Below, in pieces: positions 761-63,360 of a stretch of DNA of 64,000 nucleotides. Made by a program: the position numbers and the translations under genes. This DNA comes from Chiloscyllium plagiosum (Eukaryota), in contig NC_057749.1 in NCBI RefSeq assembly GCF_004010195.1, positions 12,788,254-12,852,253 on the forward strand, read 5' to 3'. The notes under the pieces were generated by a model, which saw nothing but the letters and a program-made list of their open reading frames with translations, was not told the DNA's origin and did no database searches. Position 1 is the stretch's first letter, and each line of letters opens with the position of its first letter.

Positions 761-3700
761 GGAAATAACCCCGCAAATGCCAGTATTCCGTCACCAAGCC
801 AACCTTTATTTACACATGCATAGTACTTGACACAGCCAGCTCTCAGAGTGAGCAGAAACTCCAACACTTCTGTTTTTTTTATTTTATTAACCATTACAAA
901 TTACAAACAAACAAACAATTAACATAAACAGCCGTATACAAGAAACAGCCATTTACAGGGGAAGGGGGCAGCAAAGCCAGACCCCATACCCCACCATACA
1001 ACCAGTTCACAGGGAAACAAGGATGAACCTCGGATCCCACCGTACATTATCAAGAAGAAAAACAGTGAATTCAATCACATACAGACAGACAGTCCGATAA
1101 ACTGACCAATAAAACAGTGCACATAACACAGACACTCCTGGAAACCCAGCAAACCACCCACCCCTCCCACCTTCCGGCCACTCAAAGGCAGCCTGCCCCT
1201 CCGCTCCTTCCAGCTCTCGGTCTGCTCCATGCCCCTACCACTCTTGGTGTGCCATGACACACCTTCCAGCCACCTCCAGGACAGCTCATCCCCGTCCCTG
1301 GGATGATGGCGCACAGGGCAGCCCCCACGCATCTTCTGGCTCTCGGCCACTCCCACACACCTTCTGGCCACCTCCAGGACAGCCCGTCCTGATTACCCCT
1401 TCTTGGGACAACAGTGCTCAGAACAGCCTAACCCCCTTCCAGCTTTCAGGACGATTGGCATCAGGTTGGCCTATCCACCTTCCGACTCTCGGGACGGCCT
1501 ACCCACCCTCTGGCCTTCGGGGTGACAGCTTTCGGGATGACCTTTGAGCCTCCCAGCTCACAGTGAGGCCTGCCAGACTAAGGGACACATAAGACAGTGC
1601 AGGTGATAAACCCAACAAACAACAAGACAGAGTCAATTAGCAACAAACAGAGTCCCTTCTGATACAGAGTCCATTACCATAAACAGTTCTCTTCAGAATG
1701 CAGAATCCATTCCCAGGAATAGAGTCCACTCCAGGAAGCAGAGTGCATTATCAAAAACAGAGCCCACAACCAAAGGCAGCAAATGCACACCCTACAGCAA
1801 GTGTTCAATCTCCATAGAGGCCTGGTCTATCCCCAGAGAACCAGGCCCACTCACAGGAATATAGTTCATTGTAAAAAGGTGCAGTTAACAAACAGGGGAT
1901 GGTCCACTCCCGAAGGCAGCAAATGCTCACGTCCCAGCACACACATAGGTGTTCAGTATTTACAGAGGCCGAGCCCACCCACACAGGGCCAGGCCTACCC
2001 ACAGAGGGACAGTGCATCTGGAAAGGTGTATTTTCTCAAAGGGGTTCAGTCTAAACACCAAAAAAGTGAAAACAAATGTGAAAAAGAAAGAAAGCAAATG
2101 CTTACCTCCCGCATACAACCAGGTGTCAGTCTTTACAGAAGCCTAGTCTACCCATAGAAGGCCAGGCCTACCCACAGAGGAACAGTGCATCTGGAAAGGT
2201 GAAATAACTCACAGGGGTTCAGTCCAAATACCAAAAAGTGAAAACGTACAAAAATTAAAGAAAACCAAAGTGCAAGGGCTAAGCCCTGCCACAAAATCAG
2301 CATTGTCCTTTTCTCAAAGTAAAAGAGAAAAGAGTAACACACAGGCTGTAACCAGCCAGTGAAACAACAATCCCTTAATGAGGGCTGAATTACACCTGTA
2401 ACACATTGATTGTGTAGATCAGCCAGTTCAGAAATCAGTCCTCAAAGAAGAGAATACCAGTTAGCAAACTGGCTATACAGTTCAGCCAGTTAAGGAATCA
2501 GGTTCCCCAAACAAAATCAGAAACCAACAGCAGCAGTACACACTGGATGTGGGCAGCCAGCTCAGAGTCAGTCCCCTCCCTGACACAAATGGAGAGTCCT
2601 TAACACTGATCCAGCTCCTCAGGATCAGCACTCAGTGAGCAGAACCTCGGACACTCCTGTTTTTTTTATTTTATTAAACAGTACAAAATACAGTTGACAA
2701 TAAACAGAAAGATGCAGTTCACAAAAAACCCACTATATACAGGGGAAAGGGCAGAAAAGCCAAACCCCAAACCCCACCGTTCAACCAGTTTTCAGGGAGA
2801 TGAGGACAAACCTCAAGTCCCACTCCCACTCTTTACAAAGGTAACAGTAACATACAAGACAAGACAGTGCAATCAAATGAGAGACAGTGCATAGAACACA
2901 GAGCTTAAAAATATGTGTTGCTGGAAAAGCGCAGCAGGTCAGACAGCATCAAAGGAACAGGAGAATCGATGTTTCGGGCATAAGCCTTATGCCCGAAACG
3001 TCGATTCTCCTGCTCCTTTGATGCTGCCTGACCTGCTGCGCTTTTCCAGCTACACATTTTTAAGCTCTGATCTCCAGCATCTGCAGTCCTCACTTTCTCC
3101 ATAGAACACAGACCCAATATAGCTATATAAAAGAAACCTGACACCAGTCCACAGCACATACTGATCAGGCAGTCCTTGGCTAGCCTTCCTGCTGGACAGT
3201 CATCGGCTTTCCCGTCTCCGGCTGCCCTGTAAACTGACTGACCCTTTCACCTGGCCAACATTCCTACAGACCAGCCACCAGCTGTCTGGCTGTCAGCCCC
3301 TCCTGCATACTGACCAATCCTCCCCTGGTCGGCCTTCCTACGGGCTGCCGTCAGCTGCCTGGCTCAGCCTCCCCACATACTGACCAGCCTGCCCTATACC
3401 GGCTCTCCTGCGAGGATGCGATCAGTTGTCTCGCTTTGCATACTGACAGGCCCCTCCTGACACGCTTTCCTCCAGATCCTCCAGCCCCCAGCCAGCCCGT
3501 GTACTTGCTGCCCCTCCCTGACCAGCTTTCCTATGGGCATGCTATAGTCTGCCTAGCCCCCTGCCATCCGGAGTACCAACAGACCCACAATCCCAGCCAG
3601 CTTTCTCCCAGGCCGGACATCAACTCTCCAGTTTCCGGCTGCTCCACCTATTTAATAGCCCACTCTGGCCTGCATTTCAAGCACAGTTGATTACAAAACC

Positions 3701-4512
3701 CACATACATTAACAGAATTCACAAAATCCTCACAATACAGTTTCCAGTACCAAGGCAGAGTCCACTCCAACCGGCAGCAAATGCACACCCCGCAGCACAC
3801 ACACAGCTGTTCAGTCTCCATAGAGGCCCAGTCCATCCATAGAGAACCAGGCCCATACACAGGAACACGGTACATTGTGAAGGTGCAGTTAAGTCACAAG
3901 GGCTTGGTCCACTCCCGAAGGCAGAATCCACTCCAGGATGCAGCAATTGCTCACCTCCCAGCATACACACAGGTATTCAGTCTTTACAGAGGCCTAGTCA
4001 CCCCAAAGAGCCAGGCCTACCCATACAAGAACAGCTCATCTGGAAAGATGTATTTTCTCACAAGAGCTCAGTCCAAACACCAAAGTGAAAACACAAACAA
4101 AATAGAAAGAAAACCAGAGTGCAAGGGCTAAGCCCTGCCACAAAATCAGCATAGTCCTTTTCTCAAAGAGTGACACAGACTATAACTAGCCAGTGAAGCA
4201 ACTGTTCCCTAATAAGAACTGAGTTACACTTGAAACACATTGACTGTTTAAATCAGTCAGTTTAAAAATCAGTCCTCAATAAAAAGGAATACCAGTTAAC
4301 AAACTGGCTGTATGGATCAGTCAGTTTAGAGATCAGGTTCCCCAAAAACAATCAGAAACCAACAGCAGCAGTACACACTGGATGTGAGGCAGCCAGCTCA
4401 GAGTCAGTCCCCTCCCTGACACAAATGGAGAGTCCTTGACACTGATCCAACTCCCTCACAGCCAGCTCTCAGAATGAGCAGAACCTCCGACACTTCTGTT
4501 ACAATCACTACA
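761..4512 (-). mobile_element. LTR (TGTAGTG... start at 4512) expanded by two tandem ~1.8 kb poly(A)-ended units
   Basis: Abuts the PBS-like site and gag; AATAAA on minus at ~806-811; the LTR segment cagccagctctcagagtgagcagaa..acacttctgtt recurs at ~832-872, ~2630-2660 and ~4458-4500; T-tract plus ttttattaa at 873-890 and 2660-2677. Confidence 0.6.
2903..3099. mobile_element. Penelope-like family A asymmetric palindrome with 13-bp TSD
   Basis: Inverted arms pivot at ~2985; catagaacacaga duplicated at 2890-2902 and 3100-3112. Confidence 0.85.
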
Positions 4513-4829
4513 CCTGGTACCTATCCTGTCAGGAAGTGACTTGGCTTAGGCAAGCTGACATGATTATATTTTAAGATGAATTTTCTGATTACTCAGAAAC
4601 AGGGCATTTATTAGCAACATCTCTAATGTAAATAATTTACTGATTTGCTGTTCACCACCTGTCTAAAATTATATAAATATAAATTTATAGAACGCATTTC
4701 CTGGAATGATTTTTAGATAGGTATTTTAATCCTGGTGAATGTTACTTTTAGTAAGTAATAGTCAGAAGGAAGCGTGAGAAATCAAGACCAGATGTACACT
4801 GACATTCTGCCAATTTTCAAAGTGATTCA

Positions 4830-5606: not shown

Positions 5607-6565
5607 GGATGAGCATATGGTTGCTGGGTTTAATGAAAAACAGAATTAGATTAAAAAAATGGGTTTCTATGATATCTTTTGTGTTTCTTCAATACACTTA
5701 GCTTTATGCATGTTCCAGCTGCATTTTCCCAACAGGTCCAATAGTCTCTGGGTTCTGACCAAAACTACTGCTTGCCACATAATCAGTGTGCTTACTGGAA
5801 CCCATTATAAGCTGTTTGTATCTAAGTTTGCATCTAAATATGTTGACATGAAAAGAAATTGATAGTTATGAAATGATTGCACAAAGCAAAGAAAACTTTA
5901 CTTCCAGACTAGTAAAAATGTTCGATATTATAAGAATCCATAACAAAATTCCTTATTCAACTATGTCTCTCTGTTGCTGGCATTGTTTCCTAATGGATAA
6001 ATAAATATTTATTTACATCCTTAAGTTTTGCTATTAGCGACTTTGATGAAAGGAGAACACAACTGATTTCTGTTTGATTGTTGAAATTAAAGCGAATTTC
6101 AGGATTGTGCAAATCATTGAAATAAAAATCATTACAGCTTTGCAATTTTAAAGAAGCAACAATTTGTTTAGGTCCATTTTTGACAGACAAATGAGTCCAC
6201 TCAGATCCCATCTTATCTTTTACTCTTGTGATGTAAATTCTAGTTGTTCAATCCTGTTACTCAAGTTTGTAAACAGAATCTTCCTGTAGTCTGATACTGA
6301 GCTTCAGAAGCTTCCAAAGGCAGCTCAGTTGAAAGTGTGAAGCTGGTACACAGTTCCACTCTCCTATGCGTAGAGTATAATGGTCAGATCTGTTACTCAA
6401 AAGACTTACAGTTTGAAATACAAACTTACCCCAAGGCTACACTAGCTTTGCCACTTTTGCATGTATCTCATCATCAATAATTTGGAGGTGCCAGTGTTGG
6501 ACTGGGGTGGACAAAGTTAAAAATCACACAACACCAGGTTATAGTCCAACAGGTTTAATTGGAAG

Positions 6566-6600
6566 CACTAGCTTTCGGAGCACTGCTCCTTCATCAGGTG
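6566..6600 (-). ncRNA. Minimal hammerhead ribozyme motif (family B)
   Basis: Minus strand reads CAC-CTGATGA-A-GGAGC-AGT-GCTCC-GAAA-GCTA-GTG: intact core, 5-bp stem II, palindromic AGCT helix III, CAC/GTG helix I. Confidence 0.75.
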
Positions 6601-6686
6601 GTTACGTCCACAATCACCTGATGAAGGAGCGGTGCTCTGCAAGCTAGAGCTTCCAATTAAACCTGTTGGACTATAACCTGGTGTTG

Positions 6687-6842
6687 AAAATGTGTTGCTG
6701 GAAAAGCGCAGCAGGTCAGGCAGCATCCAAGGAGCAGGAGAATCGACGTTTCGGGCATGATCCCTTCTTCAGGGACCTGCTGCGCTTTTCCAGCAACACA
6801 TTTTCAGCTCTGATCTCCAGCATCTGCAGTCCTCACTTTCTC
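6687..6842. mobile_element. Penelope-like family A palindrome nested in family B, 16-bp TSD
   Basis: ctataacctggtgttg at 6671-6686 and 6843-6858; hammerhead motif on minus at 6741-6774 (CTGAAGA-AGGG-ATCATG-CCC-GAAACGTC). Confidence 0.85.
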
Positions 6843-7779
6843 CTATAACCTGGTGTTGTGTGATTTTTAACTCCCATCATCAATAGGTCAGGTCAACAAA
6901 AGTATTTCAAGGTCCATGTCCATTCTTGGCATTTCTGCTGGAGTTTTCTAATGGCAGACACAATATCAGTGATTCCTAAACCTTATCTGAAAACAAATTA
7001 ATTCTCTGGCAGCAGATCTTTGTTGAGATGTTGCACTAAGCTGTTAAGAAGATTGAGCAAAGATTTTGAATGTAATGGAGAAGAGTGAGATTCCTTTTCA
7101 GTTGTCGCAAGATCAACAAGTTTTTTCAGCATGTGCAGATGAAAAATGGAGGCATTTTTAGGATCTTGCAGTCATCATAATCAGGCACTGACTTCTAGCC
7201 TTGTAGCTTACAGCTGGGAAAGCAGCAGTTCTTGCAGCTTTGCTGCTAGACAGGAGTTTGATTGCATTTGTCTTTTGTAACAGTGTGGGAGTGTCAATAA
7301 GAGAGCAGTTGATGGAAACCTATGCCTCTCCCCCATTGATTGCTTCTTCATTGATTGATGAAGGTCACTTGAGATATATATAGCTCAGCAAGCTGTATAA
7401 ACCAAGACTGCATGGTGTGATCCAATACTGTGGTATGTACACCAAAGCTGGATACAGAGCTATATGGATCAGTAAGATCTTCTATCTCCAATCTTTATTA
7501 AACAAAATAATTTCAGCCTGTTAATTGGTTCTCATAGGTTTGTACCCATTCTCCTTATCTCTAACTGACCTTATTATTTTGAAGTTCCTCCTGCTTTCAA
7601 AACCCTTAACATCACTCTGTCTTATCAGCTGTAGATACCAGACATCACCGTTTGTTAATTCAGTTTTGGACTCCTGTTGTTCTGCATTGTTCATGGTATT
7701 GAGGGCAGAAGTCAGTTTTAAAATTAGGACTTGTGGCTTCTTGAATTGTCTTCCACTTGCCCATATTCAAAGGCCTCAA

Positions 7780-10832: not shown

Positions 10833-11005
10833 AACAGGGTTAATGATTTCAGTTCAGTGACCCTTCTTCAGAACTGGAGTAGGGTCTCTGGACTTGAAAC
10901 ATTAACTCTGCTTTCTCTCCACTGATGCTACTAGATCTGCTGAGTTTCTCCAGTAATTTCTGTTTTTATTTCAGACATTCAGCAAACACAGTTCTTTGTT
11001 TTACT
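10833..11005. mobile_element. Penelope-like family C palindrome remnant
   Basis: Minus arm AGTT-CTGAAGA-AGGGTCACTGAACT-GAAA; plus arm gggtctctggacttgaaacattaactctg...cagtaatttctgtttt. Confidence 0.65.
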
Positions 11006-11134
11006 TTATGAAATTAATCAGGATTCCTTCTCCACTACTGCCCAATGACTGCTAGAAAGTGTGCATGTTTAGACATCTTGTAGAACAGGATTGGAGTAAT
11101 CTGCAATAGCTGGCCAAATCTGGCAAGGGTGATG

Positions 11135-12310: not shown

Positions 12311-12845
12311 TCAAAAACAGAAATTACTGGAAAAACTCAGCAGGTCTGGCAGCAACTGTGGAGAGAAATCAGAGTTAACCTTCCTTGTCCAGTAATCGTC
12401 CTTCAGAACTGGTTGCTAGCTTTTTCTTTTCCATGCAGGAGGGAGACAAAAATTTGTGTTTCTGTCCCACCTTTCACAATCATGGAACACCCTAAAGTGC
12501 TCGGTTTACTCTCAATGAAGTACTTATACTTTTGACTTATCTCAACTTGTATAATGTTCTTCTACTGTATTTCTTAATTAACTATTGTAAGGACATTCCC
12601 AAGTTTCATTCCCACCCTTTACAGAGATCACTGATCAGCATTGCACTAGGGATGTTACATTTGAACTTGGAAATAAAAATAACAAAGGAGTTAAAATTCA
12701 TCCAAAAATGATAATCTTTGCCGGAAGTGGGATTGAGGAGCTAGCAATCAAGGCTGACAAAGGGTCACTAGACTCAAAATGTTAACTCCATTTTCCTTTC
12801 TACAGATGCTGCCAGATCTGCTGAACTTCTCCAGCACTTACTGTA
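12311..12845. mobile_element. Two family C pLTR fragments in opposite orientation (12311-12411 minus, 12752-12845 plus)
   Basis: cagaaattactggaaaaactcagcaggtctggcagca..cagagttaac versus gttaactcc..cagatgctgccagatctgctgaacttctccagc. Confidence 0.6.
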
Positions 12846-13095
12846 TTGATCAAGACTAGAGTTTGGTTTTGTTGTGATACCTCCAGTGGTGGAATAGCTT
12901 TCTAAACATAAACATGAAGAGTGGTTATTTAGGCAGAGAACAACCAGTACATGCTAAACTGTACCTCAGCAACAAGTCAATTTATTGAGACATAGGAGGG
13001 AGTTGGGTACAGATTGGCAAGAAATAAATGATTTATCTTGAGCTTCATTCCTTGTGTTCATGTCTACTGATATTTTATGTTCTTGCTTGTTGCAG

Positions 13096-14242: not shown

Positions 14243-14330
14243 ACTGAAGAAAGGTTACTGGACCTGAAACATTAACTCTGATTTCTCTCCACAGACCTGC
14301 TGTGGTTTTCCAGCAATTTCATTTTTTGCT
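14243..14330 (+). mobile_element. Family C pLTR fragment starting at the hammerhead motif
   Basis: CTGAAGA-AAGGTT-ACTG-GACCT-GAAA-CATTAACT followed by the family C tail. Confidence 0.65.
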
Positions 14331-15856: not shown

Positions 15857-16111
15857 TTTTTTACGAGGATCTAAGTCTTTCCACTGAATAGACGTTTGTA
15901 CTGTTAAACTCTGCAGAACATGAAATTCCTCTTGTCAGCCATCTAATCAGTATGTTGCTTTCCTTCACTTAAGTTCACTCTGTCCTTTATTATTATTACA
16001 AGATTAATGCAACCCAACAGAACAGGGTAATGACAGTTATATGAATCTAACTGTTTCCAACCTCTGTGATTCCCTTTAAAATTGTATTTCTTGTGTGTTT
16101 TTATCTTTCAG

Positions 16112-31384: not shown

Positions 31385-31804
31385 ACTGTTTGCAGGATTG
31401 GAAGCTGGGGTGGCAACGATGCTGAGGACAGCATTTGGATTGCAATCTTTCTGTGAATGCGCAGTGGGTGGAAAGTCCTGGGACTAGAAATTGGAGATCA
31501 GAGTATACCAGCCCTGTGGAGGCCTTTGAACGACAGTGGTCTCCTTGGGGCGAAGGAACATCATAAACTCCAGAGTTGACATTCCAGTTTAATTATGATA
31601 CATTTCTGTTGACCGCTTCACTTTTGTTCTTGTTGAGGTGCACCATTCGGGCTGTCCAATTTCTTTTTAGGTTTATTTGAAATAGTAGATACTAGACCTA
31701 AACAATGAGTGGCAATGTGTCTAGGGGTGGACACTGGGTATTTTTGGGGATGGACCTTGGGTGCCAGTGTGTCTGAGGATGGGCCCTGGGTGGTTCTGGG
31801 GATG

Positions 31805-31998
31805 ATGTGGAGGTGCCAGTGTTGGACTGGGTTGGACAAGGTCAAAAATCGCATGACACCAGGATATAGTCCAATGGATTTGTTTGTAAACACAAGCTTT
31901 CGGAGTGCAGCTCCTTCATCGGGAGCAGCGCTCCAAAAACTAGTGTTTTCAAATAAATTTATTGGACTATAACCTGGTGTCGTGTGAGTTTTGATCTT
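31805..31998. mobile_element. Penelope-like family B palindrome
   Basis: Arms pivot within the hammerhead at ~31920; gttctggggatg on both sides (31793-31804, 31999-32010). Confidence 0.75.
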
Positions 31999-32029
31999 GT
32001 TCTGGGGATGAACACTAGGTGGCAGTTCA

Positions 32030-32243
32030 TTTAGGGATTGTTCAATATATCATTTCAGTTACATGACACTGTAATATTTTGCTATAAATTATGTGTCTTA
32101 TGATCTTATACTCCACAACCACCTGATGAAGGAGCATCGCGCCAAAAGCTAGTGCTTCCGGATGAACCTGTTGAACTATAATGTGGTGTTGAGTGATTTT
32201 AAACTTTGTCTACCCCAGTCCAACACCAGCTCTTCCACATCAT
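32030..32243 (+). mobile_element. Penelope-like family B 3' end
   Basis: ccacCTGATGAaggagc..aaagctagtgc at ~32119-32155; upstream part shared with 54520-54600. Confidence 0.75.
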
Positions 32244-34652
32244 TTCTGAAGATGGATACTGGATAGCCGTATGCCTGTACATAGATGTTGGGTGGGAGGT
32301 CTGGGAATTGGCAATGGGTGGCAGTGTTTCTGAGGATGGACACTGGGTGGCAGTGTTTCTGGGGATGGACACTGGGTGGCAGTGTTTCTGGGGATGGACA
32401 CTGGGTGGCAGCATTTCTGTGGATAGACACTGGGTGGCAGTGTTTCTGGGTTTGAACACGGGGCGGCAGTGTGTCTGGGGATAGACACAAGGTGGCAATT
32501 TTGATCCAGACTTTTGATCCAGATCCAGCTCACTGAATTTATTAAAAATGAAAACAGGATGAGCTGGAAATACACAGCTCAGCATCAAAGCAGATGAGAG
32601 GTAAAACCTCAGCTCTCCACAGATTATCCAAATCTGCTGAATATTTCCAGCCTTGTGTGCTTTTTATTTCAGCTTACTGTGTCATGGTATTTTGGATATG
32701 TGTCCCAATTTTGTTTTGAATTGTTTGGAAATATTGTCCTGACATGGCTGCCTGGATCCTAAGCTCTGGAATTCCACGTTTTTATTTCTTTGTCTCAGCA
32801 TCCTGACTTTACTTCCCTCAGTCACTCATTAAAAAATAAAGTTTTAATTTGCCCTGTATTTTCTCATGTAGCTCACTCACATTTTGCTTTCTAATACTCA
32901 AGTGAAGTGTCTTGGAAGCGACATTAAAGTTGTTTTACAAAAGACAGGTTGTTGTTGTTAAAGTGGCTTTTCTTTGCTAGTTTTTCATACTTCCATCTCT
33001 ATGTTCTTTGCTTGTTTAACCATCTCCTGTTCTACACTAAGCACTTTGCTGGTCACTCTTGTGCATGTGTTTATTTTGGGGTATTTGTTTCCTTTACTCT
33101 TTCCATCTTGACTTTATATAGCACCTTAATGTTTCATTTCAAATGCTAATATGACCTAGTTCTGATGCTGCATCCATGCCTGAAATGTTGATTTCTGTTC
33201 TTTCCTTCTGTCAGACCTACTAATGGTTTCAAGCATATTTTTGTTTCTCAGAGTTTCTTTCCTAATTCTTGGTAGGGAGGCAATCAAATTAATAAAAGAT
33301 ATGTATCAGATGTAGAGATTACAGTTGTGATGTCACTGCTGTATTGTGTGCTCAAGTGTAACTTAATCTCTATTAAATAGAAACTCTTTTTGAACTGATG
33401 ACTGGTGATATGTGTGTCACAATCTATCAGGTTGGAGAGAACGAGGATGCTGCTTTATCATCAGTCATTCAGAGATGAGGAAGAATTTACCAGCCTAAAA
33501 GATAGGGTCAAATCTATTAAGAATATGTACTTCAATATATTTTACTGGATTGAGAAATCGTGGAGAACAGAACTAATATTAGCTGGAGAGCTATAATCAC
33601 TGTATATTACATATTTTTTGAAGTTGTAGTCTACTACACTCTTCGCTAAGACTTCTTTCTGATTTTTGTTTCCATTATTATTTAGGGCATGCTGTTAATT
33701 AATACCCCTTTGGGACTTGCTGTGAGTTGATATTCCAAAGGGGCATAATTAATGTTCTGATGTGGCTTCTTGTCAACTACTATTTATATAATGCATTCTA
33801 TCCATTAATGATCTAACCCAATGCATATCAAATAGTATTTACTCTGGACTGGATATTATTCTTGTAACAGATAACTAACTGTACAGCCTTCTGGTTTACT
33901 GATCAGTATACTGCCTGATTTTATTCTTGCATTGTACTTCTACCAATGCAATAGTTTTCTAGTATGTTAGCTCAGTCCATTTGCTACAAGGCACTATTGC
34001 CTACTTGCCTGGATGAGTGTAACTCTAGCAAGACTCTAGAAGCATACCCCAACCATCCAGGATGAAGTACCTCACCTTGATTGTCCACTTAGTGCAATAT
34101 GCTGGAGTTGATTATCCATTAGCTCTGCTCAACCATGTTCCTCTTTCAAGTTGCGAGAGCTTTTCTCAAACTTTGTTTCTTATCTAGTTAGATGTATTCT
34201 TGTGTCTGAGGCTCTCCTCTCCATTTTAAACAGCAGGTAATGAACTGAGATACAAAGAAGAGAGGGGTTTCTATCTGACATGGTCTTGAGAGGCTAAAGG
34301 ATACATCTGAGCAAAGGATAAGGTCATTTAGGTGGAATTAGCTCAGTGGATGCTGCAGGCAGAGTCATTTTGACAAATCCATGAATTATGTAAGAATCAC
34401 TGTAATAGAGAGAGTTTTCTATATTGGGTATCTTTACAAAACCAAAGACTACTAAAACCTGTACAAATTACTGAGCAAAGGGCAGAATGGCCTATTCCTG
34501 CTCCTAAGAAATGTTTGTCATGTTTGTATGTTAGCATTTGATGATCAATTTGGGTCCCAATAATGACACAATTAATATTTGAGAATTGATAATGAGTGAA
34601 ATATACACCTTTTTCAATACTTCTAATGGCAGAAAATAATTCTTATTCTTAG

Positions 34653-42355: not shown

Positions 42356-42359
42356 TCGG

Positions 42360-43990
42360 TCCTACCTTGTTCTCTGCTGTGTTCCTGTCTGCCCTCACTG
42401 TTTGACTTGCTCGTTTTCCCAACTGGACCAGTATCAGATTGATTGATTTATTTCCTCACTATTTACCTGGGTCCCCCCCTCCCCCTCCCCACTACCACCC
42501 CAACCTTACTAGTTTAACTCCTCCTGAGCAGCTCTAGCAAATCTCTCTGCCAGTATATTAGTCCCCTTCCAATTTAGGTGCAACCCATCCTTCTTGTACA
42601 AGTCACTTCTACCCCAAAACAGCTTCCAATGATCCAAAACTGTGAACCCATCTCTCCTGTACCAGCTCCTCAGCCACACATTCCTCTGCTCTGTCCTCCT
42701 GTTCCTACCCTCACTAGCTCATAGCACCAGGAATAATCCAAACAATACTACCCTCGAGGACCTCCTTTTTAAATTCCTGCCTAATTTTCTATATTCTCCC
42801 TTCAGAATCTCATCCTTTTCTCATGTCATTGGTTCCAATGTGTACAACAACCTCCTGCTGGTCCCTCTTCCCTTTGAGAACATTCTGTATCCTCTCTGAG
42901 ACATCCTTGATCCTGGCACCAGGGAGGTACACACCATTCTGATTTTTCGCTGCCAGTTGCAGAAACATCTGTCTGTGCCTCTGACTGGAGAGTCTCCTAT
43001 TACAATTGATCACTTGGAACCCAACGTACCTCTCATTACATTAACGCCATTCTTGGTACCCGAAACTTGGCTATTTGTGATATATGGATTAGTGGTGCTG
43101 GAAGAGCACAGCAGTTCAGGCAGCATCTGAGGAGCAGTAAAATCGACATTTCGGGCAAAAGCCCTTCATCAGGAATCTATTTGTGATATATTCCCCTGAG
43201 AGTCCACCACCCTCTACATTTTCCAAAACTGCATACTTGTTTGAAATGGGGATAGCCACAGAAGACTCCTGCACTACCTGTCTACCCCTCCTACTTTTCC
43301 TGCGTTTAACCCATCTACCTGACTGTATCTGCAGCTTTTCTCCCGTTCTATAACTGCCATCCATCACACCCCCTAGCTTCTGTAAATTCCTTACTGTCTC
43401 TAACTGCCGCTCCAACAGATTCATACGATCTGATAGGATTTGCAACCAAAAGCATTTTTTGCAGGCATAGTTATCAGTAGCATGGAAACTCTCCCTAAAC
43501 TCCCACATCTGACAAGAAGAGGATATCACTCTACTAAAGGCCATCTTTGCTTCTTCACAATCTACAGACCCAGAAAATGGACCGTCTTATTGCTGTAGAA
43601 AACCACTGCTCCAGACTAACTTAATGCTATGGCTTATATTTTTAAAATGTAATCAAGAGACAGATCTCAATAAAACATGTAATCAAGAAAGAACCACTCT
43701 GCTCACTGTTGTAGATTTACAGCAAAGCTACACTTAAAAGCTATGCACTTATGTGTTCCTGTGCTGTGAGCTTTGCCACACAGGTTCCTCCAAGGTCAGC
43801 TGTGAATTTTGCTGTTTGTTAATTTTTCCTAGATGCACTCCGATGTCCAGAGATACTTGAACTCAAACAGCAAATGCAGTAACTGTGCAGATTCACTGCT
43901 GTGTCAGACAGCAGTATCGGTTTCTTTTTCTGACCATGTGGTCAATGCCTTTGTCTGTCTTCCTCATTTTTAAAGTGCCGTTGTTTTGAT
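42360..43990 (-). mobile_element. CR1 5' region including ORF1 (zinc-finger plus SGNH esterase)
   Basis: ORF 43116..43544 SSCQMWE..YACKKC; ORF 42810..43013 LPGARIKDVSER..VVVHIGTND. Confidence 0.85.
43086..43176 (-). mobile_element. 91-bp family A pLTR insertion beginning at the hammerhead, 15-bp TSD
   Basis: ctatttgtgatatat at 43071-43085 and 43177-43191; minus strand ATTC-CTGATGA-A-GGGC-TTTT-GCCC-GAAA-TGTC-GATT. Confidence 0.85.
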
Positions 43991-54065: not shown

Positions 54066-54454
54066 CATAGCCTCACAGTCCCTACAGAATTTCTGTGTAA
54101 TTAACATCACCTTTTTCACTCAAAACTATTAAAGCCTGAAGAGATTTCCAGTGTCAATCAAATCAGTTCTGAATACTTTGCAGTGTTAATCAGCAGTTGG
54201 CATTTTTGGAATAGATTTTTAATTGAACTGATGATTTTTTAATTCTTGATTCTCATAAAGGACAGTGATGTAACAGTACTAAACATACTTCACTTGCCCT
54301 CCTTTCAATTGTCACTGGCTTCCTGAGTTAGACTGCCATTCAGACTAAACTGATTACCACTTTTGTTGACCTCTGTGCCAGCTTACATTGTAGCTTGTTT
54401 CTTTCCTTTAAACACTGTCCCTTTCCTTTTCGACACTATCTTTTGTCAAAACAT

Positions 54455-54710
54455 TTAAAATGATACAACACCAGGTTATAGTCCAACAGGTTTATTTGGA
54501 AGCACTAGCTTTTGGAGGGCTGTTCAATAAACCATCTCAGTTACATGACACTGTAATCTTTTGATATAAATTCTGTGTCTTATGATGTTATGCTCCACAA
54601 CCACCTGATGAAGGAGCAGCGCTCCAAAAGCTAGTGCTTCCAAATAAACCTGTTAGACTATAACCTTGTGTTGTGTCCACCCCAGTCCAACACTGGCTCC
54701 TTCACATCAT
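54455..54710. mobile_element. Penelope-like family B asymmetric palindrome
   Basis: Short minus arm 54455-54517; plus arm with ccacCTGATGAaGGAGCagcGCTCCaaaagctagtg at 54601-54636. Confidence 0.78.
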
Positions 54711-57500
54711 CAAAGTTAATGTTCCCAGTTCGAACCATCCTTCCCTCTTTAAAGTCTTTGAATCTCTTATTACCTGCTTGAAATTCTCCAACTGACCCAA
54801 GAATGTGCACCCAACAATACTCAGAGCCCACATTTCACCATTCTGAATATATTAAAATTATTCTGCATCAACAAGGATGGTGCCAAAATTCTAATTCTTT
54901 GTAACAAGAGTCTAGAAAACAGCCACTGACATCTATCAGGAAACCAACTAAAATGAACATAACTCCATAAGAAGGGATTCCTGATCTTCTAAGATATAAA
55001 ATTTGGTAGGGTGGGTCCCATCATTCAGAATTTCCACTTTGGGTGAAAATTAAATTCCCTGTTCCAATGAATCCAGTGAGCCAAGCATCCTGGAAGCTCG
55101 TCAACTCTTCTGGGAGCAGATAGGAATTTTCGTGTAAATTTACAGCAGTGATGAACGCGCAAGCCCAAGATTGTATAAAATTGGCAAATGCAATGTAAAT
55201 TTCTCTTACTGGATATAATAAAGAAATTGTTCTTGTAGCAACGTGGAACTTTTGTTCATTTACACTGACCCCTCTGAACCAAGAAGCAATCATTAAGTTC
55301 CTTCCACTGTCAATTGGTTTTGGAACCTCTTTGGTTTGGGATGGTGCCCACTCGAGATTACTATTATAGTTAAAAAAAAATGTTGTGGAGGAAGGAATGA
55401 CAGGATGAAGTTGTGATGCCCCTTTTAGTAGAAAAAGATGTCTACTCACATGCCAAACAGTTGCCTGGATGAGGTATTGAAGGACAGTCACTCAATGAAA
55501 TTTCAGAACAGACAGATTAAAATAGAAAAAAAACCCCAAAACTCCTGCAATCTTTGAGAAGGTTTCTTTTGCATAAAATGAATCAACCCGAGAACAATAC
55601 TCCGGCCGGGCGGTATCGCAGCAATAACTTTTGTATTATTGTGATAATTGACTCTAGAGTGAACACACTGAATTTAGTCTATTCTAGAAGAATGCAATAT
55701 GTCATTAAAGGGATATAGTGCCACCTGGTCCCTAAATTGGCATGAGTGTCACAGAAAATGGGAGATGTTTCAAGTGATTTGCCAACAAACTGTGGAAAAC
55801 CCTGGACAACACTAAACCTTATAATGTCTGTGCAGATCACATGGTAAATATTATCATGATGTATTAACCATCAACAGGACACCTAGAGTAGATGAAATGC
55901 ACTCTACAATCCTTGAAGGAAGTTGGTGAGAGGTGAGATTCTGATCAATATTCTATAAATGCTGGTTCAGTCTCAGGTCTGTAGCTTGATTCATGTTTAA
56001 ATAGAATTGAGATAGAACAATAAAATTGTGGAGTATTACACAAACATAATGTACAGTGTAATCTGAAGCAATCATTAGTTGGAAGAATTTAGCATTGTTT
56101 TTAAAGTAACAAATGACAGGACAGGGTGATGCAATGATCCACTATCATTTCCCTTCTTGCAGTCCTGGCTTTATATTTAGTGTGGCTGAAACAGAAGTCT
56201 CTTCTCTCTGGTTGTGTGAAATAAGTTTAGGGTGTAACATGTGCTTTCTCTCATACCCAAACTCCAACGTAGAACCAGTTGTGTACATGCACTGAGAAAG
56301 AGACATGACCATTTATCAAAACAGCAAACTCAACTAAAAATGCAAACACCCGTATATATCTATCAACTATTCAGGTGTTAACACACATGCAAGTTAACAT
56401 TGAGAGAATATCCACCTAGTTATAGAAAGAGCACATGTTGGAATACTGGACAGTAATTGGAGGCAAAATCATTTTAATTATATCTAGACTGACCTGGATT
56501 TCAGTTCTGGGCTATGGTGCAAAAGGAACTTCCTAATTCAGTGTATTGTCAACTATCAAACGCCATTATAAAACAGGGAGTAACCCTGCCTTCTTGTTGT
56601 AGCATGCACACCTTGTTTCAACATAATTACTCCAAACTTGCGGCAGTACATTAGACTCATTGATATAAACTTAACCATTAATTGTTCTACACAACTAATC
56701 CAATAACAGCTATAGGTGAGTGTATGAGAGTTACAGATGTGAGCTTTTTTATGAGGCTGCCACATCTAAAAATTCAGCTAAATGGTACTATAATGGTAAT
56801 GATAATGTTAACTGTCCTCTGAAATGGCCTAAGAGCAAACTACACTGTTATCAAGAAGATGGCCCTCCACTGGCTGCTCAAGCAATTCAGGATGGCCAAT
56901 AATAAATTAATGCAAAAAAAATTAGCATCAAGTTTACACTTTAGTAAACCTCAAGCAACTAGTTTAGTTTGATAGAGTTTGATTACATGAGGGAGCAGCT
57001 CAGCTCTATTCCAACATCTCCCAAATCCACAGTTTGCAGTAGCCAGGACAATAGCAGAAGATATACAGCAACACCATCACCTGCAAGCTACTCACCATCC
57101 TGACAGAAAACATAATTGCTGTTCCTTCAATGTCACTGGGTGAAAATGTTGGAACACCTTTCCTAAAAACATTGTGGGTGTGTTCGTGTCAGATCAGGCT
57201 CAGCAGTTCAAGGGGGCCACTTACCATAACCTTCTCAGAGCAACCTCTTTCCCCTGAGTTCTCTGTCTGAAGGTAGGTCTGACCTGTGCTCCCCTATAGG
57301 TAGAACAGAAATGAAGCCAGTGTTATTTACTCCAATCTGAATCACATCAGGAATCCAGCCAATTGAGGCAACTGGCCTGCACAGACAGATAGAGTCTATG
57401 TGGCAACAAGCACGTAGACATACATGTTGGAGCCTGGGGCTATCAATAGTGATGGTAAAGGGTCCAATTTCATTACATCACTTGGCTAACCAGGATTCAC

Positions 57501-58156
57501 CCCAAAGGAGCCTTGCACATCCACCAAAGCTTCACCTGCACTTCCTCAAATGTCATTATTGCATCCATTGCTCCCGATGCAGTCTCCTCTACATTGGGGA
57601 GACCGGATGCCTTCTCACAGAGTGCTTCAGGGAACATCTCCAGGACAGCCGCACCAATCAAACCCATCGCCCCATGGCCGAACATCTCAACTCCCCCTCC
57701 CACTCTGCTGAGGACATGCAGGTCCTGGGCCTCCTCCACCACCACTCCCTCACCATCTGATGCCTGGAGGAAGAACGCCTCATCTTCCACCTCGGGGCCC
57801 TTCAACCCCCGGGCATCAATGTGGACTTCACCAGTTTCCTCATTTCCCCTCCCCCCACCTTACCCCAGTTCCAAACTTCCAGCTCAGCACTGTCCTCATG
57901 ACCTGTCCTACCTGCCAATCTTTCTTCCCACCCATCTGCTCCACCCTCCTCTCCGACCTATCACCTTTACCCCTTCCTCCATCCACCTATTGCACTCTCA
58001 ACTACCTTCTCCCCAGGCCCACCCCCTCCCATTTATCTCTCCACCCCCGTGGCTTCTAGTCTCATTCCTGATGAAGGGCTCCTGCCTGAAACATTGATTT
58101 TTCTGCTCCTTGAATGCTGCCTGACCTGCTGTGCTTTTCCAGCACCACTCTAATCT
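57501..58156 (+). mobile_element. Penelope-like 3' fragment: GIY-YIG endonuclease end plus pLTR with hammerhead, 14-bp TSD
   Basis: HCSRCSLLYIGETG..FREHL..PMAEHLNS; CTGATGA-AGGGCTCCTGCCT-GAAAC at 58068; taaccaggattcac at 57487-57500 and 58157-58170. Confidence 0.9.
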
Positions 58157-59119
58157 TAACCAGGATTCACTCCCACTACTGCCATCTACCACTACTGTGT
58201 GTTGGAAGGGTCAACCATTTGATGCTCAGTATAATTGCTTGCATTTCAAACATGCCTTTCTTCACCGTAAGACCTGGACTGGCACTTAAACCTGGAGCTT
58301 CTCACTCAGAGGCAAAGTCACTGTGCAAAACAACCATGCCAAGAACAATTCAAGATGGGCACTAAATTTCTGGCTTGGCGAGTGACACCCTCTGGTTTGA
58401 AAAGAAACGGTACAGTTTACAGATGAAGATGTTGGAGACAGTCCATTGGCAGCAAAAGGGCAGGGCGAAGATCAGTCTGGAAGGAGTTCACTGACTATAC
58501 CCTCTTTGACCACCAGATGGTGAGTGTGATGCAGACTGGGGCTATGAGAATCACTGCCAACCCAGACGGAGATTGGACACACAGCTGAAACATTCTAATT
58601 AATATGATGACTTGTTTATTATCTTACACAATGACGGAAATTGCTGGTAGAGAATCGACAATCAATGACTACCCAGGAAGCAGGCGTAATGACATCACTC
58701 ACAGCCAATGACAAGGCCTGGTAAAGATCCAATGAAAAACCCAGAAGCTGTGAGTGCCAGGAGTGCTGTAAGGCAGCATCTCCAATAATCTTATACGTAA
58801 AAAAAAGAAAGATCTCACTGGGGAGGGGAATGCCTTCATTATATCATCCAATAGTAACACACAACTTACATACACATAAATATGATTAGGACAAGACTGG
58901 GCAAAGTCATATCTTGATGCTCTAGTTAATAACATTTATGGATTGGCCCTAGGAATCAATGTAACAGGCAAAATATCTTAATAAGCAGCCCCTCAGGATT
59001 GACTCTGAATTACAGGCAAAATAACTGCCTGTCCCATCACACACCCAAACATGTGCACTTCAAATCACAAAGTTTTTGTCCAAATTGCCACAGGATAGCA
59101 GTCAATATGGTTGCTTAGC

Positions 59120-59890
59120 TCATAAATACCCCATTCCTTATATACCTACCTCACAGATGTATCCACACCCCTCACTGTAACATTTTGATTTACCCAACAC
59201 CTCTCACTGTAACAGAGTTGAAGAATTTGGTTCTGGAAAAGCACAGCTGGTCAGACAACATCCGAGGAGCAGGGGAATCGACGTTTAGGGCATAAGCCCT
59301 TCATCAGGAATTGTAAGCCCTGATGAAGGGCTTATGCCTGAAAAATTGATTCTCCTGCTCCTTGGATGCTACCTGACCTGCTGTGCTTTTCTAGCACTAC
59401 AGTCTTGGGACTCTAATCTCCAGCATCTGCAGTCCTCGCTTTCTCCTCTTACTATAACACTCTGATATACCCCACATCCCTCACAGTAACATTCTGATAT
59501 GCCCCACACCCCTCACAGTAACATTCTCATATACCCCAAACCCCTCATAGTAACACTCATATACTCCATACCCCTCACAGTAACGCTGATTTACCCGACA
59601 TCTCTCGCTGTTACACTTTGATATACTCCACACTCCTCAATGTAACATTCTGATATACCCCACACCCCTTTCTGTAACATTCTGATTTACCCCACACCCT
59701 TCAATGTAACTCTCTGACATACCCTACATTCTTTACTGTGACACTAATATACACCTCATCCCTCATTTTAACACTCTAATATCCTCCACTCCTCTCACTA
59801 TAACACTCTGATATATCCCATATGTCTCACTATGACACTTGGGTATATTCCATACTCCTCACTATAACATTCTGATATACCCCACACCAT
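59120..59890. repeat. ~31-32 bp minisatellite (ctcactgtaacactctgatataccccacaccc); resumes at 62793-62882
   Basis: More than 15 degenerate units visible. Confidence 0.88.
59215..59445. mobile_element. Family A palindrome with back-to-back hammerhead motifs, inserted in the minisatellite
   Basis: ..gcccttcatcaggaa-ttgtaagc-cctgatgaagggc..; degenerate flanking duplication 59201-59214 / 59446-59459. Confidence 0.8.
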
Positions 59891-60551
59891 TTCTCTAACT
59901 CAACCTGATGAAGCTAGCAAACAGGACTACTTGCATGCCAAACAGCATAAGCCATAAGTGACAGACACATCTAGGTGATCCACAACAAATGGATCAGATC
60001 TAAGCTCTGCATTGCTGCCTCCTCCAGTCATGAATGGTGATGGGCAAGTAAACAACTCATTGGAGAAGGAGTCTCCACAAATAATCCTATCATCAATGGT
60101 GGAGGTGCAAAAGAGAAGGCTGAAACATTTTCAACAAACTTCAGCCAAAAGTGTCAAGTGGATGATCCATCTCGGCCTCCTCCAGTGGTCCCCAGCATCA
60201 CAGATACCAGTCTTCAGCCAATTCGATTCACTCCACGTGATGTCAACAAACGATTGGAGACAATGGATACTGCAAAGGCTATGGGCCTTGACAACATTCT
60301 GACAACAGTACTGAAGACCTGTGCTCCAGACCTTGCCTCTCCTCTACTTACAACACTAGCATCTACCCAATAATGTGGAAAATTGCCCAGGTATGTCTTG
60401 TTCACAAAAAACAGGACAAATTCTACTCAGCCAATTACCACCCCATCAGCAATAACCTGCTCACTGACACCCAGTTTGGGTTCTGCCAGGACCATTCAAG
60501 TTCCTGACCTCATTACAGCTTTGGTTCAAACATGGACAAAAGAGAAGAATT

Positions 60552-61626
60552 GAAAAATGTGTTGCTGGAAAAGCGCAGCAGGTCAGACAGCATCGAAGGA
60601 GCAGGAGAATCGACATTTCGGGCATGAGGAAGGTGTGCCAAGAAGGCTAAGATAAAAGGTAGGGAGAGGGACTAGGGGGAGGGGTGTTGGGAATGCGATA
60701 GGTGGAAGGAGGTTAAGGTGAGGGTGATAGGCCGGAGAGGGGGTGAGGGCGGAGAGGTCGGACAGAAAATTGCAGGTCAAGAAGGCGGTGCTGAGTCCGA
60801 GGACTGGGACTGAGATAAGGTGGGGGGAGGGGAAATGAAGAACCTGGAGAAATCTGCATTCATCCCTTGTGGTTGGAAGGTTCCTAGGCGGAAGATGAGG
60901 CGCTCTTCCTCCAGGCGTCATGTTGCCATGGTCTCACGATGGAGGAGGCCAAGGACCTGCATGTCCTTGGCGGAGTGTGAGGGGGAGTTAAAGTGTTCAG
61001 CCACGGGGCGGTTGGGATGGTTGGTGCGGGTGTCTCAGAGGTGTTCTCTGAAACGTTTTTTGCGGAACGTTTCAGAAAACACCTCTGGGACACCCGCACC
61101 AACCAACCCAACTGCCCCGTGGCTGAACACTTTAACTCCCCTTTCCACTCTGCCAAGGACATGCAGGTCCTTGGCCTCCTCCGTCGCCAGACCATGGCAA
61201 CATGACGCCTGGAGGAAGAGCGCCTCATCTTCCACCTAGGAACCCTCCAACCACAAGGGATGAATGCAGATTTCTCCAGCTTCCTCATTTCCCCTCCCCC
61301 CACCTTATCTCAGTCCCAACCCTCGGACTCAGCACCGCCTTCTTGACCTGCAATCTTCATCCCGCCCTCTCCGCCCCTGCCCCCTCTCTGGCCTATCACC
61401 CTCACCTTAACCTCCTTCCACCTATCGCATTCCCAACCCCCCTCCCCCAAGTCCCTCCTCCCTACCTTTTATCTTAGCCTGCTTGGCACACCTTCCTCAT
61501 TCCTGAAGAAGGGCTTATGCCCGAAATGTCGATTCTCCTGCTTCTTGGATGCTGCCTGACCTGCTGCGCTTTTCCAGCAACACATTTTTCAGCTCTGATC
61601 TTCAGCATCTGCAGTCCTCACTTTCT
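60552..61626. mobile_element. ~1.07 kb Penelope-like family A palindrome with GIY-YIG C-terminus in both arms, 15-bp TSD
   Basis: Mirror ORFs 60820..61239(+) and 60884..61303(-); centre ctgaaacgtt-ttttgcgg-aacgtttcag; caaaagagaagaatt at 60537-60551 and 61627-61641. Confidence 0.92.
61499..61534 (+). ncRNA. Minimal hammerhead ribozyme motif (family A)
   Basis: ATTC-CTGAAGA-A-GGGC-TTAT-GCCC-GAAA-TGTC-GATT. Confidence 0.65.
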
Positions 61627-63002
61627 CAAAAGAGAAGAATTCCAGAGATGAGACTGACACTCCTCTATATCAAGGCTGCATTTGACTGAGTGTGGCATCA
61701 AGGAGCCCTATCAAAACTGAAATCAATGGGCATCAGGGGGCAAACTCTCTGCTTGAGAGTCATACATGACACATAGGAAGATGGTTGGGGTTATTGGAGG
61801 TCAGTCATTTCAGCTCCAGGACATCTCTGCAGGAGTTCTTCAGAGTAGTGTCCTGGACTCAACCATTTTCAGCTGTTTCAACAATGACCTTCCCTCCATT
61901 ATAAGGTCAGAAGTTACACAATGTTCAGCACCATTCACAAATCCTCAGATACTGAAGGAATCATAAGCCCTGATGAAACATCGATTCTCCTGCTCCTCAA
62001 ATGCTGCCTAACTGGCTGTGCTTTTCCACACACCACATTGGACTAAAAACTGGCAAGTAACATTTATGCCACACAAATGCCTGGCATTGCCCATCACCAA
62101 CAAGAGACAATACAACCAATGCCTCTTGACAATCAATAGCGTTATCATTACTGAATCCCCTCTATCAACATCCTGAGGGTTACCATTGATCAGAAACTCA
62201 ACTGCACATGCCACAAGAGCTAGTCAGAGGCTAGGAATACTATAGTGAATAACCTACCTCCTAACTCCCTATTCACCATCCACTAGGCAAAAGTCAGGAG
62301 TGTGATGGAATACTCCCCACTTGCCTGGATGGGGGCAGCCTCAACAACACTCAAGAAGTCTGACACCATCCAGGACAAAGCAGCCTGCTAGATTGGCACC
62401 ACATCCACCACCTTTAATATTCAGTCACTTCACCATTCATGTTCAATAGCAGCAGTGTGTACATCCTATAAAATACACAACAGAAATTCACCAAAGATCT
62501 TCAGAATGTGCCTTCCAAACCCATGACCACCTCCATCTAGAAGGAAAGGCACACTACTACTTACAAGTTCCTCTCCAAGCCACTCACCATTCTGTCTTGG
62601 AAATATATCACCGTTCCTTCAGTACAGTTGGATCAAAATCCTGGAATTTCCTCCCTAAAGGCATTGTGTGTCAACCTGCAGCATGTGGACTGCAGCCATT
62701 CAAGAAGGCAGATCAGCACCATCTTCTCAAGGGCAATTATGGATGGACAATAAATGCTAGCAATGTCCACATCCCACAGGTGAATAAAAAAAACTCTGAG
62801 ATATCCCATATCCCTCACTGTAACACTCTGCTATAATCATCACTATAGTAATCTGAGATAGCCCACACCTCTCACTGTACATACAGATGTACCAACAATC
62901 TGATATCTCCTGTAAACCCTTGTTACCACAGTCTGCAGGTGTTAGTAAGGACTATCCTTCCTCTGTGCTGTTTAGGGCTTGTTTCAGAGACACTGAAATT
63001 TT

Positions 63003-63212
63003 TGGATGTAGATTTGCTCGCTGAGCTGGAAGTTTTCAGATGTTTCATCATCACACTAGATAACATCTTCAGTGAGTCTCCAGATGGAGCTTTATCCGGA
63101 TGATGTCACCTAGTATGGTGACGAAATGTCTGAAAGTGAACCTTCCAGGTCAGCGAGCAAACCTACATTCAGAACCTCAACCTGAGCCAGAAATCTTCTC
63201 AAAATTTGCTAT
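63003..63212. mobile_element. Penelope-like family D asymmetric palindrome, 12-bp TSD
   Basis: cactgaaatttt at 62991-63002 and 63213-63224; minus arm CTGAAGA-TGTTATCTAGTGTGATGAT-GAAAC; plus arm CGGATGA-TGTCACCTAGTATGGTGAC-GAAATGTC. Confidence 0.75.
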
Positions 63213-63360
63213 CACTGAAATTTTGTAATTTTCATGTCATATCCTATTGGCTCCTGAATGCAGAGATATCTCAGACTAAAGATTGTTGACTTTAAGCCCC
63301 TGGGCTTCAACTGATGTTCATTTTTAAACATTCTAAAACACAATGCTTAAAGCAACCTCA

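Follow-up and report, generated by a model that had tools for sequence, protein, structure and literature searches.

Short fold-back copies with minimal hammerhead motifs in a shark genome as probable insertion products of Penelope-like elements

The Locus and Its Short Inverted Copies

The stretch of 64,000 nucleotides (nt) analyzed here, from the shark Chiloscyllium plagiosum (assembly GCF_004010195.1, contig NC_057749.1, positions 12,788,254 to 12,852,253 of the forward strand; hereafter, the window), sits inside a CSPG4/FRAS-like host gene, of which two long open exons, at 16070-19705 and 51239-53191 on the plus strand, encode Laminin G and CSPG-type Cadherin_3 repeats (E 1e-83, 7e-48). 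The introns of this gene are occupied by repeats, including short units of four families, denoted A to D, which carry a whole or decayed minimal hammerhead motif and are often organized as two inverted arms within a single target site duplication (TSD). Their geometry, which is common to families A, B and D genome-wide and which C fits more thinly, points to Penelope-like elements (PLEs) as the probable source of these units.

The copies in the window were located through BLAST searches with family references at a cut-off of E<=0.01, with end points good to a few nt, and all arm end points are given as d, the distance from the 3' end of the element. The window contains 992 N in three runs (22635-23232, 35604-35737 and 38016-38275), which fall on retroelement coding regions. 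A first-pass annotation, made from the letters of the window, had listed approximately 18 copies in four unrelated families, and BLAST recovered 17 of these 18; the remaining one, a decayed A/C-like module on the plus strand at 33155..33250, gave no match at E<=0.01 in the window and resembles the A/C module by eye only. The term "unrelated" also has to be withdrawn for A and C, given that these families have in common a block of 31-33 nt at an equal distance from the 3' end (BLAST E 2e-4 to 3e-3), with tails that are alike by eye.

Family A is represented by copies of very different lengths. The fold-back at 2890..3112 (plus strand) is bounded by the 13-nt TSD catagaacacaga at 2890-2902 and 3100-3112, and joins a tail-less inverted arm (2903-2985) to a tail-bearing arm (2986-3099) with a tail of about 34 nt (3066-3099); its pivot lies in the helix II loop at about 2985, and the CUGANGA box has been lost. 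An asymmetric fold-back at 6672..6858 (plus strand; 15-nt TSD tataacctggtgttg), nested in a family B copy, combines a tail-less arm at 6687-6773 (d127..41), which keeps the box, with a tail-bearing arm at 6774-6843 (d71..1). A long fold-back at 60540..61640 (plus strand; TSD aagagaagaatt) has arms at 60551-61057 (d563..38) and 61060-61627 (d569..2), both of which begin inside the endonuclease (EN) coding region, with a hammerhead at 61503.

The fold-back at 59213..59446 (plus strand; inverted arm d130..32, direct arm d127..1, 7-nt spacer) is inserted in a 32-bp minisatellite of approximately 15 units (59163-59933), and its TSD is not separable from the period of the repeat. PLEs are reported to favor microsatellite targets (Craig, Yushenova, Rodriguez and Arkhipova 2021, PMC8557442). 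The other family A copies are a tail-bearing arm at 1..88 (plus strand, d94..3, 93% to the A reference by BLAST), cut by the window start; a single tail-less arm with an intact box at 43092..43176 (minus strand, d130..46; 15-nt TSD ctatttgtgatatat); a long tail-less copy at 57500..58148 (plus strand, d684..46; TSD taaccaggattca), with a hammerhead at 58068 and a GIY-YIG coding remnant at 57557-57709; and a fragment at 61974..62039 (plus strand, d107..43).

In family B, the minus-strand fold-back at 6469..6885 (TSD (c)atcatcaata; BLAST-recovered span 6477-6872) has a tail-bearing left arm at 6480-6603 (minus strand) and a right arm, at 6612-6686 and 6859-6872, which is split by the family A insertion described above; the box is kept in both arms, with a 20-nt spacer. 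A second minus-strand fold-back, at 31802..31998 (TSD gttctgggg), has its tail-bearing arm at 31802-31922 (minus strand) and a partner arm at 31922-31984, which ends at d52 by BLAST and is traceable by eye to about 31998. On the plus strand, the copy at 54454..54710 consists of an inverted arm (54454-54525, d112..42) joined to a direct arm (54521-54710, d204..2), and a direct copy of 205 nt is found at 32038..32243 (d205..2), beside a 29-bp tandem array of approximately seven units (32271-32502) which directly adjoins it.

The family C copy at 10835..11007 (plus strand) has a short inverted arm (10835-10871, d134..98), a direct arm (10869-11007) with a tail of about 40 nt, a pivot at the box, and the approximate TSD aattaa(t)cagg. 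Three further copies of this family are tail-less arms: a single arm at 12313..12410 on the minus strand (BLAST span 12313-12392; outer end d41; TSD tgctagctt), one at 12761..12850 on the plus strand (d127..39) with no clear TSD, and one that starts at the box, at 14243..14327 on the plus strand (d135..41), where no TSD was seen. Family D is present as a fold-back at 62991..63225 (plus strand; TSD cactgaaatttt), with a tail-less arm at 63000-63070 and a tail-bearing arm, with a tail of about 40 nt, at 63083-63213.

Taken over all the families, the tail-less arm stops 34-45 nt before the end of its partner in the copies that begin at 2903, 6687, 59213, 60552, 6480, 54454 and 63003; in the family B copy at 31802, the difference between the two ends is 52 nt. 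This bears out the earlier claim that one arm ends short of the other in A, B and D. TSDs of 9-15 bp, judged by eye and without a control for the window set, were found in 10 of the 16 copies inspected. The first-pass annotation had also proposed one common insertion architecture, and this stands as far as the TSD, the inverted arm, the one-sided tail and the pivot at or just 5' of the box are concerned, but not for three single tail-less arms, each with its own TSD, at 43092, 57500 and 12313.

The window also hosts a separate dispersed repeat, recognized by a 66-nt block present seven times (9482-9547, 10340-10405, 23783-23848, 30973-31038, 38382-38447, 40192-40257 and 42277-42342). This block is part of longer repeats of up to about 300 nt, one copy of which adjoins an RVT_1 fragment at 37654-38367, and the repeat is probably the 3' part of a long interspersed nuclear element (LINE) family.

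Minimal Hammerhead Motifs

The motif CTGANGA-N4-30-GAAA matches the window 17 times, compared with an expectation of 6.95 +/- 2.73, and none of 100 shuffles reached 17; nine of the 17 matches fall in the listed copies. The GAAA is followed by a short palindrome, read directly as ACGT in A and D, AGCT in B, and a decayed AACGTT in C. A minimal hammerhead ribozyme (min-HHR) has CUGANGA, a helix II with the G10.1-C11.1 pair, one additional base behind position 9, GAAA, a palindrome at 15.2-16.2 and an H17 that is not G. Direct reading of the sequence shows these features in A (61503, 43149), in B (6573, on the minus strand) and in genome copies of D, and the hammerhead of family C is decayed (14244, 10847). 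Helix II differs by family and yet pairs in each, as GGGC/GCCC in A, GGAGC/GCUCC in B and GUUACC/GGUGAC in D. The same features are listed for the min-HHRs of metazoan PLEs by Cervera and de la Pena (2014, PMC4209133).

When the hammerhead segments were co-folded as RNA, dimers were favored over two monomers, and the hammerhead dimer itself was not reproduced. A scan of the window with Rfam covariance models returned no hammerhead matches, either at the gathering score or at E<=10; the Rfam hammerhead models include helix III, which the minimal motifs described here lack. The only weak matches of the scan, all below threshold, were to plant or animal microRNA (miRNA) families, at 60996-61128, 31834-32002 and 59256-59372 (MIR8670, which scored 75.9 bits where the gathering score is 150, MIR869 and mir-680). 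These matches to miRNA precursors arise because fold-back insertions form perfect hairpins, and fold-back hairpins of this kind are likely to be a source of false miRNA annotation.

Genome-Wide Geometry of the Copies

In the 3.56-Gb assembly, the 31-nt tail of family A has 33,714 exact matches, compared with none for the reversed control. The first 30 exact-tail matches along contig 1, a positional sample, represent 29 distinct loci, and in four of these there are N directly 5' of the arm, which mimic a 5' truncation, so that these loci were uninformative and were set aside for the 5' extent. The deepest 5' extent lies at d122-138 in 23 of the 25 unmasked loci, where the box starts at d126, and the other two reach d203 and d256. 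Fold-backs make up 18 of the 29 loci. A TSD score of at least 9 was found in 17 of 30 rows, including 15 of the 18 fold-backs, and in none of the 30 control rows with mismatched flanks. In 12 of these 15 TSD-bounded fold-backs, the right copy of the TSD begins at most 2 nt from d1. The start of the tail-less arm likewise lies at d35-45 in 12 of the 15, and at d78, d91 and d95 in the other three.

The way in which the arms are joined was examined through junction patterns, with box-N0-30-box for head-to-head and tail-N1-40-box for head-to-tail junctions, and the reversed patterns as controls. Head-to-head junctions were found at 10,873 loci in A, 2,207 in B and 44 in D, with none in each of the reversed controls, and head-to-tail junctions of family A number 48 matches genome-wide. 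The spacers of family A range from 4 to 27 nt. In the first 49 of the 10,873 family A loci, the spacer is at most 13 nt in 37, and the box variant is the same in both arms of 48 (33 A/A, 15 T/T and one mixed), when approximately 21 mixed loci would be expected if the arms were drawn randomly from the two variants. Given this, together with the single TSD, the two arms of a unit can be attributed to one event from one template lineage.

In 30 tail-anchored loci of family B, the 5' end lies at d111-127 in 15 (box at d121), further upstream in eight (d147 to >d700) and closer to the 3' end in seven; the outer end of 14 inverted arms is at d34-40 in eight and d52-61 in six. The spacers range from 5 to 29 nt, and a TSD score of at least 9 was obtained in eight of 30 rows, compared with none of 30 controls.

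The genome samples of C and D were picked by similarity to the window copy. In family D, 16 of the 44 loci have a 26-nt spacer and 11 a 27-nt spacer, which indicates that each arm ends at the same nucleotide, 17 nt before the box on its 5' side, and that the joining added either no or one base. All 12 D copies fetched have the same architecture, but they were the ones that BLAST ranked highest against the entire window unit and are thus biased to its shape; TSDs are readable in 11 of them, and their central deletions, of 0-14 nt, differ between copies. Reverse matches of this family stop at about 165-176 of the 211 nt. In family C, 11 of 40 scored matches end at the tail boundary, and three adjacent inverted pairs were found.

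The pivots and arm ends are thus far from random, and the principal observation of the first-pass annotation, that they cluster near the ribozyme, stands genome-wide. The defined second priming site that it proposed is matched by a discrete second initiation 35-45 nt inside the 3' end, of a kind already published for PAc, the Poseidon element of the lizard Anolis carolinensis.

One sampled locus, L030, has a different organization, with an A module (d134..1) followed, 1 nt after the tail, by a PLE body that matches positions 1967-2298 of locus L097 at 82%, i.e., a partial tandem similar to a pseudo-long terminal repeat (pLTR). It is the only sampled tail-anchored locus whose downstream flank continues into a PLE body, so that the evidence of pLTR organization in family A consists of the 48 head-to-tail matches and this locus, with the coding part reading N in the long stretches fetched.

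Family A as a Penelope-Like Element and the Search for Other Parents

For the segment of 435 nt that precedes the hammerhead of the long window copy, the genome has more than 5,000 candidate relatives. Locus L021 contains a Pfam RVT_1 match at 6562-7350 (E 2.3e-6) with the reverse transcriptase (RT) motifs LPKIHK and YIDD (P0003), and L022 contains, at 5619-6377, a C-terminal GIY..YIG with interleaved Cys/His (CCHH), a motif read by eye (P0001, P0002). The order in two long family A copies is RT, GIY-YIG/CCHH, approximately 300 nt, the hammerhead, and about 97 nt to the end. By tblastn, the family A EN matches window positions 57557-57709 (E 6e-22), and the two arms of the fold-back at 60551-61627 also carry it, at about 61056-61202. 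When the RT piece was compared with a protein atlas, only RVT_1-type eukaryotic clusters were obtained, which may be taken as a lead.

Judged by its translated sequence, family A is an EN-bearing (EN+) PLE which runs upstream into an open reading frame (ORF) for RT followed by GIY-YIG/CCHH, and the description of the family A copies as PLE-type insertions is thereby confirmed. Long family A "open frames" of 988-2008 amino acids (aa), from an RT-protein search in which 145 of 58,488 candidates were scored, were rejected as artefacts of N; in L032, L033, L034, L046, L096 and L097, the N runs fall on retroelement coding regions, as they do in the window, and swell the open frames to these lengths.

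An EN fragment in L072, found by tblastn with the A proteins, was rejected as a family B parent, being an unrelated neighbor. Six loci (L062, L063, L068, L069, L078 and L083) hold older family B copies that are 72-82% alike, measure between 350 and more than 650 nt, and lack recognizable coding capacity, and some of the older long copies have their own inverted arm and TSD. The longer family B element may be genuinely non-coding.

A Proposed Mechanism of Insertion

These observations are best accounted for, with good but not full confidence, if the units are insertion products of EN+ PLEs for which the final ~120-145 nt of the element RNA served as template, and if most of them were inert from the moment of insertion. 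The copied module holds the minimal hammerhead and the RT start region, and each unit corresponds to one insertion event within one TSD of about 8-18 bp. One arm reaches the true 3' end, the inverted arm starts 35-45 nt further in, without a tail, and the two stop only a few nt apart, at a point that lies, according to the family, 4-17 nt upstream of the CUGANGA box, where they are joined head to head with between zero and a few extra or overlapping bases.

In the sequence of events that we propose, the PLE protein would nick both target strands, and RT would be primed by each 3'-OH at either of two sites inside the RNA; use of the distal site would yield an arm with a tail, and use of the proximal site an arm without. 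Both cDNAs would run off at a discrete RNA 5' end, or at a strong stop, just before helix I, and would then be joined. The single-arm insertions, with or without a tail, may result from the same process on only one of the strands. The ends would not be set by ribozyme cleavage, since the copies include the entire ribozyme.

A narrower version of this mechanism is possible, although we hold it tentatively and think it rather less likely than its negation. According to this version, most of the insertions derive from a discrete RNA of ~125-145 nt or a fixed run-off point, with the 5' end at the first nucleotides of helix I (approximately 4 nt before the box in A, 7-12 in B and 17 in D), and the two cDNAs are joined blunt, with either no or one untemplated base. 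If this were so, the ribozyme-headed 3' module would be the minimal mobilizable unit of a PLE, and the genome would be a natural archive of tens of thousands of events from which the two RT start sites and the 5' end of the RNA could be read; transcription start or processing would be positioned by the fold of the ribozyme and not by its cleavage.

Several observations weigh against the proposed origin, beginning with the templates. Long family A copies read straight through the end point of the short copies, so that a separate short RNA, a start within the upstream module, or an RT block or stop has to be assumed, and two fetched stretches read N over the coding part, so that a full-length family A element was not seen and the RNA start is inferred and not observed. 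The Pfam match to GIY-YIG in family A is weak (E 0.041, under the curated cut-off), the assignment being made from the motifs read by eye. None of 60 ORFs upstream of seven long B copies matches RT or EN in Pfam, and no RT/EN parent was found for C or D, so that the dependence of B, C and D on PLEs is argued from the architecture. In the copies themselves, five of the seven unmasked single-arm family A copies have no TSD (the other two have a score of at least 9), one family A fold-back (L048/L049) has tails on both arms and no TSD, and 6 of the 14 family B inverted arms miss the tail boundary (d52-61). The C and D samples, having been picked by likeness to the window copy, are also biased to the same geometry.

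Alternative Explanations

The strongest of the alternatives, which we nevertheless regard as unlikely, is that the 3' end of a single cDNA folds over at a palindrome, be it helix II, ACGT/AGCT or the AAGCTT centre of D, and that the strand then copies itself. Such an event would give the same variant in both arms, as in 48 of the 49 loci, and the pivots do lie in self-complementary sequence (the helix II loop at 2985 and the palindromic D centre), with arm overlaps of 0-11 nt at the junction. On the other hand, a self-copied strand has no reason to stop 35-45 nt before the end, and the single tail-less arms with their own TSD (43092, 57500 and 12313) indicate that initiation at the inner site occurs alone; the in vitro work on PAc found extension of both strands and the use of two start sites (Frangieh 2024, PMC11167929).

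The first-pass annotation had suggested that a short RNA bounded by the ribozyme cut is mobilized as a non-autonomous, retrozyme-like unit, and this is not supported by the arm ends and junctions, being in our judgment improbable. It is true that short units dominate (23 short, two intermediate and four masked among the 29 family A loci), that there is a discrete 5' end point beside the ribozyme, and that the long B copies have no coding capacity, and PLE-derived non-LTR (non-long terminal repeat) retrozymes are reported, in a preprint, from the one Chondrichthyes genome that it sampled (Li, Clavereau and Pollet 2026). The ends nevertheless lie 4-17 nt 5' of the box, so that the copied unit keeps the whole ribozyme, whereas a cut at the predicted GUC/CUA site would place the ends at d~98 in A and d~92 in B; among ~48 family A arms, only 4 end at d96-103.

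The orientation of the arms points the same way, since none of the 17 BLAST-confirmed window copies has head-to-tail arms, and a transcript across an inverted pair holds a single sense ribozyme, which, together with the 48 head-to-tail matches against 10,873 head-to-head loci in family A, speaks against a ribozyme-bounded RNA. Both box variants occur in the short copies and also in the long copies of the window (T at 58068 and A at 61503).

Raw reads from poly(A) single-cell libraries, examined over 59100-61700, cover the A module on both strands, with loose read ends that pile up at 61499 (the 5' boundary of the unit), 61588 (near the tail boundary) and 61627 (the 3' end). A fraction of 0.94 of the aligned reads continues into unlike sequence, however, and these reads thus come from other copies inside other transcripts. 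No discrete molecule start or end was found in this region, in a library blind to small RNAs, which makes it a weak test of the retrozyme reading.

It is still less probable, to the point of being remote, that the fold-backs were inherited, i.e., that a hairpin-shaped master element was transcribed and copied whole. Family D lends itself to this idea, since all 40 scored loci match collinearly along the full 211 nt, and 27 of the 44 junctions have a spacer of 26 or 27 nt. Even in D, however, the centres have differing deletions in 8 of 13 aligned copies, and the spacers vary in length in A (4 to 27 nt) and in B (5 to 29 nt) and have a filler sequence that differs by locus, which speaks against a master copy, as do asymmetric arm pairs such as d129 joined to d80 and d256 to d52. 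The TSDs, in addition, abut the arms, with no transduced flank.

That the units are miniature inverted-repeat transposable elements (MITEs) of DNA transposons with chance hammerhead-like strings is hardly credible, given that, although they are short, TSD-flanked and made of inverted arms, these arms are unequal by a tail of 34-45 nt, the pivot varies, the TSDs range from 8 to 18 bp instead of being fixed, and family A, where the first-pass annotation had left room for MITEs unlinked to GIY-YIG ORFs, contradicts this directly by being continuous with an RT/GIY-YIG ORF, with EN found by tblastn in its window copies.

Significance and Comparison with Known Systems

The integration of PLEs is poorly known, and the only biochemical study found was made in vitro with one lizard element. 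Insertion by EN+ PLEs, as proposed above, would make the shark families an independent genomic support for two internal RT start sites and for the use of both target strands, to which they would add that both cDNAs end abruptly a short way ahead of the ribozyme and meet head to head, with arms of one template lineage. It also speaks against hammerhead cleavage as what delimits the copied unit. As regards annotation, tens of thousands of hairpin repeats of ~130-220 bp would be the products of PLEs, and not MITEs, miRNA precursors or retrozymes.

The published signature of PLEs has this architecture, and the inference of a second priming site is already in print. According to Craig et al. (2021, PMC8557442), PLE insertions are 5'-truncated, often with an adjacent inverted 5'-truncated copy, and have a tail of 30-40 bp at one end. 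The shark units have in common with these canonical EN+ PLEs the strong 5' truncation, the inverted copy beside the direct one, the one-sided tail and the hammerhead of the terminal repeat, and the order of RT followed by a C-terminal GIY-YIG with CCHH is matched by family A. They differ from that description in being mostly body-less units of ~120-220 bp, in which partial tandems (pLTRs) are rare. The sharp 5' stop before helix I, the near-blunt head-to-head joint and the arms of the same lineage are not stated in the main text of Frangieh 2024 or in the other PLE accounts found, and a literature search of incomplete coverage returned no publication on these elements in sharks beyond a 2017 review.

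The min-HHRs of metazoan PLEs have the CUGANGA/GAAA core in common with the shark motifs, with a palindrome instead of helix III, and are mostly single or paired on opposite strands, as they are here, an arrangement which the available part of that study ascribes to truncated PLEs (Cervera and de la Pena 2014, PMC4209133). Most of the shark copies are decayed and known from sequence alone, and statistics on arm ends and tails are not found in that part of the 2014 account.

Cervera and de la Pena are said to have worked, in 2020, on non-LTR (animal) retrozymes. As described in the available part of a recent preprint, these are tandem hammerhead units derived from the terminal regions of PLEs (Li, Clavereau and Pollet 2026), which resemble the shark units in being small and non-coding, with a type I hammerhead and kinship to PLE terminal regions. 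Unlike the shark units, in which the arms are inverted and the ends lie off the cut site, they are organized as tandem direct repeats, every one of which has a hammerhead, with a circular RNA of unit length.

In the twin priming of L1 elements, the 3' end of the second target strand primes on the element RNA, which results in an inverted segment within one TSD. The segments of L1 come from different parts of one RNA, whereas both arms of the shark units copy the same region, with a fixed second start.

A close likeness is to the PAc element, whose protein cleaves and extends both target strands in vitro, with two adjacent internal RT start sites whose spacing corresponds to the tail, in a region ~90-115 nt 3' of the hammerhead; its ribozyme mutants insert normally, so that hammerhead cleavage is not needed (Frangieh 2024, PMC11167929). 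That study is based on in vitro assays and read mapping in a lizard element, and the present one on genomic copies in a cartilaginous fish, and the two agree on the two start sites spaced by the tail, on the use of both strands, and on a unit that keeps the whole ribozyme.

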